From NCBI GenBank assembly GCA_044229845.1, contig JBGASG010000001.1, positions 1 to 64,000 of the forward strand: a stretch of 64,000 nucleotides of DNA. Direction: 5' to 3'. The DNA is from Candidatus Obscuribacteraceae bacterium (GTDB lineage: Bacteria > Cyanobacteriota > Vampirovibrionia > Obscuribacterales > Obscuribacteraceae). Shown here piece by piece: positions 34,428 to 63,657 of this stretch. The position numbers and the translations under genes were made by a program. Numbering within the stretch: the stretch's first letter is position 1; every line of letters starts with the position of its first letter. Under the pieces are notes generated by a model, which saw only the letters and a list, made by a program, of their open reading frames with translations, did no database searches and was not told where the DNA came from.

Positions 34428-34522
34428 GGGGATGCAGCGTCGCTGGTGTGGTGCTCGGTCTTCAAAACCGTTGTGGGGCAGTCAGTGCTGTCCTTGGTGG
34501 GTTCGATTCCTACGCATCCCCG
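34428..34522 (+). tRNA. selC: tRNA-Sec (anticodon TCA)
   Basis: 8-bp acceptor stem GGGGATGC/GCATCCCC, 6-bp D stem with 4-nt loop TGGT, anticodon loop CTTCAAA, long variable arm, 5-bp T stem with TTCGATT loop, G discriminator. CCA is not encoded. Confidence 0.95.
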
Positions 34523-34573
34523 CCTCTTTACTGTAAAGTGCGTTTTTTCTCAGACAGTGGTGGCAATTAAGGC

Positions 34574-61759: not shown

Positions 61760-62092
61760 ATGATCGACGATCCCCCGGTTGACGAGTTGGAGCAGCGCCG
61801 ACGGAAGAGAGCGCAAGAAACACCTGTGGGCGGAGTTAGCGATGCCTGGAAAAGCTTTGAGCCGGGGCAGCAAGTGCTGTGTCGCGTGGTGGCACCGGAA
61901 GAAGGCGGCTACAGCGTGGTGCTGATCGAAGGACATACGCCCGGATATCTGCCTACCGAGCGCAAACACAAGCACGGCGAAGACGTCCGCGCGCAGTTCG
62001 TCTGTGTCAACGGCGGACGCTTGCTGCTCGTACCGCTGCTTCGCAACCTGGCTGAATCGCCTGACTTGAGTAACTCCAGCGACTTCGACTGA
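61760..62092 (+). CDS. Small S1/OB-fold-like protein
   Basis: GGGAG RBS. FEPGQQVLCRVV...GGYSVVL...GYLP...GEDVRAQ pattern. Confidence 0.6.
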   Translation: MIDDPPVDELEQRRRKRAQETPVGGVSDAWKSFEPGQQVLCRVVAPEEGGYSVVLIEGHTPGYLPTERKHKHGEDVRAQFVCVNGGRLLLVPLLRNLAESPDLSNSSDFD

Positions 62093-62098
62093 ATTGGC

Positions 62099-62117
62099 TG
62101 ACGGCAACCTACCGTCA
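62099..62117 (-). promoter_or_regulatory. Candidate bacterial SECIS element
   Basis: UGACGGUA-GGU-UGCCGUCA hairpin starting 11 nt after the UGA at 62131-62129, with loop G at +23. Confidence 0.65.
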
Positions 62118-62119
62118 AG

Positions 62120-62617
62120 TTAACCGCCTCAACTGAAACCCTGACGCGGTGCGGCGCTGCCGCCCGGACCGGCGCGCCCGCCTTTGTCGAAGTAGTTGCC
62201 CTGTCCGGCGAATGTGCGGTGCTGGTTGTAGTACGCCATCGTCTGGTTGGCGTAGTCGGCGTACGAGCGCAGCGTCGGATCCTGACTGCGGGCGACTACC
62301 CAGTCGTAATGCTGTTGTGCTGCGGCAGTCTGATTCTGGTGCTGATAGCATTGCCCGATGTAATAGTGAACCAGGTCGCAGCAAAATCCGCTGCTGTCCA
62401 GCTTGAAGAAGCATTTCAACGCACCGGAATAGTTTCTCTTCTGATACAGACTCAAGCCTTCTTTGTAGGTTGCCTGACTGAGAAGCTTCGCCCGTTTTGC
62501 CTGGGCTGCGGAGGTCTTCTTAGAGGCACCTGACTTAGCCGCCTTCGCGTCCACCGATATGGCTGGCAATGACAGCAGGGCGGAAAGTACCAGCAGGAGA
62601 GCAAGCGGTTTTTGCAT
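62120..62617 (-). CDS. Exported TPR-like protein, candidate selenoprotein ending F-S-U-G-G (ends at 62129 if UGA is a stop)
   Basis: GGAG RBS, signal peptide, TPR pair containing CC, Gly-rich tail, then TGA GGC GGT TAA and the SECIS-like hairpin. Confidence 0.75.
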
Positions 62618-62676: not shown

Positions 62677-63483
62677 TCAACGCGGATCGAACCAATATCG
62701 ATACATCGGAAAGCCCTGCCAGTTCGTGTCTCCCGTGTTTTGCAGCCAGCCGCGCGGAGCACCGGGCTCGGTCGCGGAAAAGGTGAAATTGCCCGGTGCC
62801 TGATCGATGGGAATCGCCAGGATCATGCATGGGTCTGGGACATAGCCGTTCCAGTATCGAGAAACTGAAGTCGACAACTTCATCCATTGCCGGCGATTCG
62901 GTATGGCACGCTTGTCCCAGAAGAAGATGTCGAGATTGTGATAAGGAGCGACCATGGCGTCATTGCTGTAAGCGTAGGCCGGTAGCCAGTTCGGGCGACC
63001 TTTGGGTTGTTGATTCTTGTCCTGTGCTTGTCCCTGCAGTGGGGCTTGTTGTGTTGCGCGCGGGAAAAGCTGTGCCGGTGCTGCCGTCCGTGCTTGCATC
63101 GGGTTGCCGAACTGCCAGGGCGTGTAGGGCGAGCCACCAGGGGCGGTGCCGGGAGGAGGTTGCTGTTGTTGTTGGAGATATCCCGGAAATACTGGAGTTG
63201 CGGGCGGTGCCACCTTTTGTGTTTGCTCGACCTGTCCTTGCAGCATGCCGGAGTTGTTGCCGGGATACGCCGGATACTGCTGATTGTTGCTCGGATACTG
63301 GTTGGTCGGTTGAGTGTACTGCGTGTTGGGCGGGATGTACGGCAGGTTGGGCGGCGGGCTGGGAGGCGCGGCATAGCTCGGCACGTAGTCCATTGGCACA
63401 TAATCTTCTGCCAACGCTGGACCGGGGCTCTGCCAAGCCACCAGCACCATGGCGAGAATCTCTAAAAATCGTACTTTACGCAC
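62677..63483 (-). CDS. Exported Pro/Gln-rich protein with Trp-rich C-terminal domain
   Basis: GTG start, signal peptide ending ALA, low-complexity linker, and a ~95-aa globular C-terminus. Confidence 0.7.
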   Translation of the reverse strand: MRKVRFLEILAMVLVAWQSPGPALAEDYVPMDYVPSYAAPPSPPPNLPYIPPNTQYTQPTNQYPSNNQQYPAYPGNNSGMLQGQVEQTQKVAPPATPVFPGYLQQQQQPPPGTAPGGSPYTPWQFGNPMQARTAAPAQLFPRATQQAPLQGQAQDKNQQPKGRPNWLPAYAYSNDAMVAPYHNLDIFFWDKRAIPNRRQWMKLSTSVSRYWNGYVPDPCMILAIPIDQAPGNFTFSATEPGAPRGWLQNTGDTNWQGFPMYRYWFDPR

Positions 63484-63657
63484 ATATTCACCGGCGCAAA
63501 CTGTAACCAGCATATCATTTCAGCCAACTCAACCGTGTGAGCGTGCCTCCGCACCGGCAGTGGTCAAGCGGTGCCGCGGGTGACAATCGCGACAGTGGAA
63601 GCGGTATCCTATAGCCGGGAACGAACTAGAGTCGTTTCAGCACAAGGAGGACAACTG

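Follow-up and report, generated by a model that had tools for sequence, protein, structure and literature searches.

We report a candidate selenoprotein gene on the minus strand of a 64,000-nt stretch of DNA from a Candidatus Obscuribacteraceae bacterium (GenBank assembly GCA_044229845.1, contig JBGASG010000001.1, positions 1 to 64,000), referred to below as the window. Comparison with homologous sequences makes it very probable that this is a real selenoprotein gene and that it belongs to a previously undescribed family. In the proposed mechanism, SelB carrying Sec-tRNA(Sec) would bind a hairpin at 62118-62098, which lies wholly in the 3' untranslated region (3' UTR) and whose GGU loop stands 23 nt from the UGA; the UGA at 62131-62129 would be decoded as selenocysteine (Sec, U), and the ribosome would then add Gly-Gly and stop at the UAA at 62122-62120. 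The predicted product would comprise a signal-peptide-like segment, a Lys-rich linker, a three-repeat tetratricopeptide repeat (TPR) domain, a hinge with the motif RTYxGQGNxF and a Gly-rich tail of ~25 residues, with Sec third from the end. The features of the system are as follows.

62120..62617, minus strand: full candidate selenoprotein open reading frame (ORF), ATG at 62617, 165 codons, with UGA as Sec163, then Gly164, Gly165 and the stop TAA at 62122-62120.
62546..62617, minus strand: N-terminal residues 1-24, hydrophobic as read by eye, ending V-D-A before K, then a Lys/Arg-rich linker.
62219..62509, minus strand: six-helix TPR-like domain with three repeats, residues 37-133, from AlphaFold2 (AF2), Foldseek and weak Pfam TPR_1/TPR_2 matches.
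62189..62221, minus strand: hinge motif, residues 133-143, H-R-T-F-A-G-Q-G-N-Y-F, with near-invariant columns that define the family.
62123..62188, minus strand: Gly-rich, predicted disordered tail, residues 144-165, with the end G-F-S-U-G-G, from the AF2 per-residue confidence (pLDDT) and conservation.
62129..62131, minus strand: UGA predicted to be read as selenocysteine, residue 163, from the conserved first-stop TGA and the Cys aligned in the homologue of genome G013.
62098..62118, minus strand: putative selenocysteine insertion sequence (SECIS) element in the 3' UTR, 8 bp (62117-62110 with 62106-62099), an optional U.G pair and a GGU loop at 62109-62107.
34428..34524, plus strand: tRNA-Sec with anticodon UCA, needed for UGA decoding, from ARAGORN and Rfam RF01852.

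The uninterrupted minus-strand ORF before the TGA spans 62617..62132, and its frame ends with CGT CAG GGT TTC AGT (R Q G F S), followed by the TGA, by GGC GGT at 62128-62123 and by the TAA. Translation with TGA as U yields 165 amino acids with U163. The entry in the public protein collection, P0002, is the 162-amino-acid truncated form, indicating that gene callers miss the last three residues, as the first-pass annotation of this DNA had predicted. Its description of the sequence, namely an ORF end continued by GGC GGT TAA and a hairpin from +15 to +33 (U of UGA being +1) with G at +23 and no U-tract, was reproduced in every part. The 5' arm of the stem, TGACGGTA, covers 62117-62110 (+15..+22) and the 3' arm, TGCCGTCA, covers 62106-62099 (to +33), enclosing the loop GGT at 62109-62107 (+23..+25), the first loop G thus standing at +23. 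A ninth pair, U.G between 62118 and 62098, is possible, and the hairpin starts one to two nt past the TAA. RNAfold recovers the same 8-bp stem. The minimal SECIS of Escherichia coli fdhF obeys a spacing rule of 11 nt with G23. The window element resembles fdhF-type SECIS elements in being a short stem-loop with a loop G ~23 nt from the U of UGA, and differs from them in that the apex in the family is a closed A-GGU-U with a 3-nt loop on an 8-bp stem, there is no obvious bulged U, and the element stands outside the coding sequence.

Conservation of the TGA was assessed in homologues defined by the hinge motif RTYxGQGNxF, independently of their stop codon. They were collected by a six-frame search of 60 relatives together with the window's own genome, and by pattern scans for the same motif with tblastn confirmation. 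In the six-frame search, related genes turned up across numerous genera within the same family, with TGA as the first stop in 22 of 23 motif-bearing homologues; the TPR-thioredoxin matches of that search stop at TAA or TAG. A scan of one genome per species (185,579 prokaryote species, with a pattern derived from an 11-row alignment subset) gave 53 pattern matches and 37 confirmed relatives, all 37 with TGA as the first stop, ten of them also present among the six-frame loci. Their sources are metagenome-assembled genomes labelled Melainabacteria, Obscuribacterales or Cyanobacteria, the exceptions being two labelled Drouetiella and Proteobacteria and one labelled 'bacterium'. In JGI metagenomes the same pattern retrieved 18 relatives, 17 of which have TGA first, and the sole non-TGA relative has a TAA stop and a quite different, Asn/Pro/Tyr-rich tail. 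For comparison, TGA terminates 35.6% of 3077 crude long genes in the window's genome, a share similar to those of TAA and TAG. Homologue identities reach down to ~30%, distances at which stop codons are not kept by descent. The ending G-TGA-(N or R)-stop, with a hairpin behind it, recurs in four tandem second copies. As a separate observation, loci L012, L042, L045, L051 and L053 hold tail-type tandem pairs, in which a first copy ending ...DCGP[RS]G-U-R is followed by one ending ...GGGG-U-N, each with a hairpin of its own.

The codons between the TGA and the next stop number 1 (20 loci), 2 (23), 3 (2), 4 (2) or 7 (1) in 48 loci. Extensions of 1-4 codons therefore occur in 47/48 loci; the next in-frame stop falls within 4 codons in 18% of the genome's TGA-ending genes. 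The 60 distinct tails of the family show a narrow choice of extension peptides, GG and R with 18 cases each, GR, RR and RAR with 4 each, N with 3, Q with 2, and the rest as single cases. Single-Arg extensions are encoded by CGA (4 loci), CGC (3), CGG (6) and CGT (5), RR is written as AGA-CGC, AGG-CGT, CGA-AGA or CGG-CGC, drawing on both Arg codon boxes, and four different codon pairs serve for GG. The nucleotides vary among synonymous Arg and Gly codons under a conserved amino acid, which argues that the extension is translated. Longer extensions of 7 codons (C1:700238-700717 and L013) and 4 codons (L083) also occur, and both 7-codon extensions include a further Cys.

Counterparts with Cys in place of Sec provide a second view of the position. 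Genome G013 (91% complete, 10 contigs) has no selA, selB or tRNA-Sec above cut-off. The family member of this genome terminates in ...GWQRCQPN-TAG, no hairpin follows, and its Cys falls in the U column of the alignment; a Sec-less genome thus shows Cys, another stop and no hairpin, as had been anticipated from the window sequence. We also searched 1.84 billion representatives with a profile, which gave 494 proteins at E ≤ 1e-10, thioredoxin-type relatives included, and sorted the best 150 of the 494 by script, the representatives being known as called proteins only. Among these 150, 65 are tail-type proteins ending in G/S/T/A, as expected if callers stop at the UGA, 15 are tail-type with Cys in the last nine residues, 14 are TPR-thioredoxin proteins with W-C-x-x-C, and 7 are thioredoxin forms cut directly after W. 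The 15 include Cys-tailed ends such as ...GCGG, ...GGCQ, ...RGCH, ...SCGRR and ...RCQPN, seen in protein sequences only, and others are Sec forms with an upstream Cys, e.g. ...DCGPSG; further Cys tails, ...VCGRH and ...GCGHRRSR, were left unsorted by the script. P0037, P0068, P0094, P0115, P0123, P0125, P0126 and P0144, called proteins only, are among the Cys-tailed representatives, and P0037 is encoded in none of the order's 107 genomes (best identity 40-46%). The hybrids P0079, P0133 and P0159 carry the hinge motif and then a thioredoxin domain.

These data bear on an alternative in which SelB binds the hairpin but insertion is rare, the element mainly tuning termination or mRNA fate and most of the protein being the 162-residue form. 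In E. coli, Sec insertion competes with termination mediated by release factor 2 (RF2), as described in the abstract of PMC3834832, and the same competition would lend this alternative some plausibility here. However, the protein-level constraint on the extension and the existence of Cys-tailed homologues indicate that residues past 162 matter, and three loci have 7- or 4-codon extensions, the two 7-codon ones with an additional Cys. We regard predominant termination at the UGA as quite improbable.

The hairpin was analyzed comparatively in a gapless alignment of 17 hairpin-centred slices, picked by our own stem finder. The apex reads A-GG-T-T across the slices, with GG invariant and A and T at ≥90%. 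Paired cells amount to 97.8%, all eight stem pairs show double (compensatory) changes, and the covariation score of 0.856 compares with 0.297 in shuffles, none of 500 of which reaches it; in slid registers the signal collapses. A covariance model built from the 17 loci matches the coding strand in 26/27 further loci, always above the opposite strand, and it also matches the hairpin behind the Sec codon of a thioredoxin-domain paralogue described below. The loop starts at +23..+27 in 44/48 loci irrespective of extension length, with medians of 26, 25, 25 and 27 for extensions of 1, 2, 3 and 4 codons, respectively. This constant distance implies that the element is placed relative to the UGA and not to the true stop. 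With a minimum stem length of 7 bp, a loop start at +23..+27 and GG as the first two loop bases required, we found such hairpins in 44/59 distinct family loci; among 3076 crude genes of the same genome they follow 4/1096 TGA-ending and 0/1980 TAA/TAG-ending genes. The earlier proposal that homologues retain the TGA, a brief extension and, at unchanged spacing, a hairpin that covaries is thus borne out by the TGA counts (22/23, 37/37 and 17/18) and by covariation at 8/8 pairs. A genome-wide search with a hairpin model, R1, returned 10 matches at E ≤ 10, of which only the window and the paralogue at C1:700214 follow an in-frame TGA of a family gene. As a lister of the selenoproteome R1 was abandoned, the model being too short and a permissive script giving mostly noise. 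A strict apex scan (4 TGA, 7 TAA and 1 TAG frames) was little informative, as it counts any open frame of at least 100 codons, and was superseded by the crude-gene control.

Could the UGA be a real stop, with the protein ending ...GFS and the hairpin serving as a transcript-end or stability element, or as a bidirectional terminator between convergent genes? The hairpin does lie between convergent ORFs, a plus-strand ORF at 61760..62092 without a Pfam match ending 6 nt away from it, and the fold of the window hairpin taken alone is unexceptional. T-rich runs (at least 5 T in the next 8 nt) stand behind 11/59 family hairpins. In the window itself, 62098-62118 has neither a U-tract nor a terminator-like site, and no terminator was called at the hairpin. 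Furthermore, a terminator needs neither an invariant, strand-specific GGU loop, nor a fixed distance to the first stop irrespective of where the second stop lies, nor a TGA across homologues, and it leaves unexplained both the synonymous variation in the 1-2 codons past the stop and the Cys that the homologue from a Sec-less genome has there. Genuine termination at the UGA is, in our estimate, very improbable, and decoding of the UGA as Sec remains the favored reading.

In the window's own genome (5.16 Mb in 22 contigs, 88% complete), selB, selA and selD all score above their NCBIfam cut-offs, with selB at 327 bits against a cut-off of 242. The tRNA-Sec reported earlier in the same window is confirmed at 34428-34524 on the plus strand, scoring 66.9 bits with Rfam RF01852 against a gathering score of 47, in agreement with ARAGORN. 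Among 21 relative genomes with a TGA member, selB is present at E ≤ 1e-60 in 17, and the other four (G006, G021, G009 and G029) all have selA, three of them with a tRNA-Sec above the Rfam cut-off, so that the expectation of Sec machinery in carrier genomes holds.

As a positive control, the same genome contains a paralogue at C21:22534-23149 (-) (locus L073:654-1349 -), in which a thioredoxin domain (PF00085, 46 bits) comes after the family N-terminus and TPR. The TGA of this paralogue occupies the first Cys of W-C-x-x-C, giving W-U-K-Y-C, and ~32 nt downstream stands a hairpin that shares its GCAGGUUGC apex with the window element. Thioredoxin (Trx) U-x-x-C proteins are a listed selenoprotein kind (PMC13188914, Table 1). 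The C21 gene is the only one of 14 thioredoxin-domain hits in the genome to contain a TGA, which indicates that TGA is not generally read through. This ratio also speaks to a genome-wide reassignment of TGA to Trp or Gly, as in NCBI tables 4 and 25, under which the extension would be ordinary sense reading. An open frame through the TGA is compatible with such codes, but the use of TGA to end 35.6% of the crude long genes contradicts them, selA, selB and selD are read without internal stops, and TGA is found in none of 8 AhpC/TSA hits. The probability of reassignment is accordingly negligible, and a Sec-specific reading of the UGA is retained.

FdhA (TIGR01553) was not found in this 88%-complete genome, selD contains no TGA, and all three selenoprotein genes found in the genome belong to one TPR superfamily. 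With no FdhA, no Sec-type SelD and no Sec peroxiredoxin detected there, the TPR superfamily may be the main reason that the clade keeps its Sec machinery. Besides the window gene, we noted a second tail-type member at C1:700238-700717 (-) (locus L074:439-918 -), which reads ...STGSA-TGA-QRRGMCP-TAG with a hairpin starting at the second stop; its 7-codon extension with Cys (U-x5-C-P) is like that of L013 in G020. A further locus, C3:63743-64423 (-) (locus L075:441-1124 -), encodes a 227-amino-acid protein without a Pfam family, ending ...GLRCP-TGA-EGPP-stop. Behind it stands a hairpin of 8 bp whose GGT loop lies at +25 and whose R1 score is 14.2 bits. It is a possible second C-terminal selenoprotein, of C-x-U type; its TGA is retained only in a same-genus genome, and the upstream tandem paralogue lacks the TGA.

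Several points weigh against the selenoprotein assignment. selB was not found at E ≤ 1e-60 in 4/21 carriers, including G006, a genome that is 95% complete in 4 contigs. Kinship among the homologues means that the counts overstate their independence. The fold of the 66-nt context has z = -1.7 and is thermodynamically unremarkable on its own; the support for the hairpin is comparative. It has no Rfam match at the gathering score, nor at E ≤ 10 on 141 nt beyond two chance hits, and the choice of slices by the stem finder raises the share of paired cells. That choice has no bearing on the conserved apex, on the covariance-model matches in further loci, on the constant distance to the UGA or on the crude-gene control. 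Some family hairpins, those with T-rich runs, could also terminate transcription. Finally, the neighbouring genes lack conservation and offer no operon clue to function.

The AF2 model, built from a 52-row alignment, has pLDDT above 90 for residues 37-133, with helices at 37-46, 49-59, 63-75, 81-93, 97-110 and 114-133; pLDDT is about 50-55 for residues 1-24 and below 50 for 144-160. The top Foldseek matches are all small TPR domains (Tah1, YbgF-TPR, IpgC and BamD), at E ≥ 0.046 and with target-normalised TM-scores up to 0.83. In Pfam, TPR_1 scores 21.9 bits against a gathering threshold of 27.8 and TPR_2 20.8 against 27, both below, and a scan at E ≤ 1 returned TPR models and DUF7096 only. The TPR assignment made from the sequence alone is thus upheld by the six-helix fold of the model and not by the Pfam scores. 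Behind this domain the hinge is near-invariant at R134, T135, Y136, G138, G140, N141 and F143, and the last residues before Sec, x-G-F-[GS], are conserved in close relatives. The family consensus begins with a short hydrophobic stretch, A-x-A-K and a Lys-rich linker. Read by eye, the N-terminus is probably a cleaved signal peptide; a basic linker is unusual for an exported protein. The Cys pair C79-C80 is invariant among close relatives only. A redox partnership between Sec and this TPR Cys-Cys, as initially suggested, is therefore not supported as a family feature, these Cys being unconserved across the family and 3/60 distinct members having no Cys of any kind from the TPR onward.

The TPR domain would act as a docking or scaffold part, from which the tail presents the selenol on a flexible arm. 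There is about an even chance that the tail is a redox-active arm, comparable to the Sec-bearing C-termini of thioredoxin reductase, SelK and SelS; most of the remaining probability goes to a metal or metalloid ligand and a smaller share to other roles. A redox role is favored because the tail takes the place of the paralogues' thioredoxin domain after the same hinge and because some subfamilies pair Sec with a nearby Cys, a Cys at most 9 residues from U being present in 12/60 distinct tails as C-G-P-x-G-U or U-x5-C-P. Two observations count against it, the 3/60 members mentioned above, which have no Cys from the TPR onward, and the His-run ends of some representatives, which suit metal binding better.

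We also considered that the Sec tail, instead of catalysing redox reactions, binds a metal or metalloid as the arm of a chaperone, scavenger or sensor; this alternative concerns function only. Family members end in Sec (as predicted), Cys or His runs (P0039, P0061 and P0116), and what these share is metal binding and not redox chemistry; moreover, those 3/60 members offer no Cys able to resolve a selenenyl intermediate. Sec in the UXX-star families and in SaoB/SaoC may serve as a metal ligand, according to the review PMC13188914. On the other hand, the same TPR and hinge are fused to thioredoxin domains in paralogues and hybrids, subfamilies carry the nearby Cys in C-G-P-x-G-U or U-x5-C-P, and the His-ended proteins, known as called products only, may be cut at a following TGA. 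A ligand role appears somewhat unlikely. We noted that the called products of P0039, P0061 and P0116 end ...HHHH, ...GRHH and ...HSHH, respectively, and that P0023 and P0030 end ...GGGC. If a TGA and hairpin follow those ends, the tails would be His-rich plus Sec, or G-C-U as in thioredoxin reductase.

In SelK, SelS and the GCUG tail of mammalian thioredoxin reductase (TrxR), a flexible, Gly-rich segment carries Sec as the second or third residue from the C-terminal end. The window family shares the near-terminal Sec on a Gly-rich segment, L004 ending GGGGG-U-G-R. The proteins differ in that SelK, SelS and TrxR have a membrane anchor or are flavoenzymes, whereas the family has a TPR scaffold with a signal-peptide-like N-terminus; most members have no adjacent Cys, and they would rely on a bacterial SECIS and SelB and not on the eukaryotic machinery. 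The window protein has no Pfam SelK/SelS match at E ≤ 1, and the resemblance is one of design and not of descent. Tentatively, then, we propose a minimal 'selenol on a string' in Obscuribacterales, in which the thioredoxin domain has been exchanged for a Gly-rich tail of ~25 residues with a C-terminal Sec as the sole reactive group (Cys, possibly His, elsewhere). This TPR family, specific to the lineage and much duplicated, would thereby present a bacterial and probably extracytoplasmic version of the tail principle seen in SelK, SelS and TrxR.

Among known systems, the closest in arrangement are the UXX-star / KCU-star families (NF041114, NF041211 'gluta_UXX_star_2' and NF041212; Table 1 of PMC13188914), in which Sec is likewise one to a few residues from the C-terminus and gene callers truncate at the UGA. 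Because Sec is nearly C-terminal in both UXX-star and the window family, the SECIS must fall in the 3' UTR, past the true stop. The two are unrelated in sequence. NF041211 is glutaredoxin-like by its NCBIfam name and family 1 of the review, as tabulated, is distantly glutaredoxin (Grx)-like, whereas the window family combines a TPR with a disordered Gly-rich tail. None of 23 family members matches NF041114, NF041211, NF041212 or another NCBIfam selenoprotein model at E ≤ 1, and a whole-genome search with NF041211 gave nothing at the window and a 20-bit match elsewhere, against a cut-off of 100. A parallel is found in engineered E. coli constructs for rat TrxR1, in which a 17-nt SECIS carries GCAGGU at its tip, which the tip of the family hairpin resembles, and Sec498 is followed only by Gly499 (PMC3834832); since only Gly499 follows Sec498, that SECIS would also lie past the stop. 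The window order of UGA, one or two codons, stop and then SECIS matches these constructs. The Trx U-x-x-C selenoproteins are represented by paralogues in the same genomes, with the family N-terminus, TPR and hinge, a thioredoxin domain (W-C-G-P-C or W-U-K-Y-C) and the same SECIS apex; the window protein differs in lacking the thioredoxin domain, in place of which stands the single-Sec tail of ~25 residues.

Table 1 of the 2026 review (PMC13188914), with its 119 families, contains no TPR protein or lookalike; the families of Haft & Tolstoy 2025 were compared as listed there, and the nine families listed in the deep-Sep paper all differ from the window family. Full-text searches found no selenoprotein literature for Melainabacteria, Obscuribacter or Vampirovibrionia, and the source names of the family proteins are 'hypothetical protein' or none. 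The earlier statement that no described selenoprotein family is alike therefore agrees with NCBIfam, with that table and with the literature searched. The kind is known, namely bacterial selenoproteins, including those with C-terminal Sec; the family itself is new.

The gene would add a selenoprotein family in non-photosynthetic relatives of cyanobacteria, where current annotations truncate it and call its product hypothetical. It would also provide a natural bacterial SECIS that lies wholly in the 3' UTR and serves a Sec 1-2 codons before the true stop. To our knowledge, examples of this arrangement had come for the most part from engineered constructs, along with a small number of NCBIfam 'star' families. 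With Sec tails, Cys tails, and Cys- and Sec-thioredoxin domains on one scaffold, the family would offer a natural system for studying the benefit of Sec over Cys and a free C-terminal selenol. The hinge motif together with the UGA-hairpin rule gives a simple route to correct hundreds of gene models (494 representative clusters, thioredoxin-type included).

Comparison of the gene neighbourhoods of relatives revealed no neighbour gene conserved across the family; the genes next to particular subgroups encode an M1 peptidase, a glycoside hydrolase, a DUF2807 protein or an ABC permease. Two studies supply metatranscriptome contigs, 62000-62436 and 61998-62224, that cover the TGA and the hairpin. 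These contigs fit, weakly, an mRNA that includes the hairpin, as they carry no strand information and DNA carry-over is possible. The RNA-library contigs of the two studies share an end near 61998-62000, ~100 nt beyond the hairpin, which may hint at a transcript end or be chance, a choice that contigs cannot decide. The gene 60 nt upstream on the same strand, at 62677-63513 (-), encodes a 278-amino-acid Pro/Gln/Tyr-rich protein with a hydrophobic N-terminus and without a Pfam match. It is not a conserved neighbour across the family, and it may be co-transcribed with the selenoprotein ORF.

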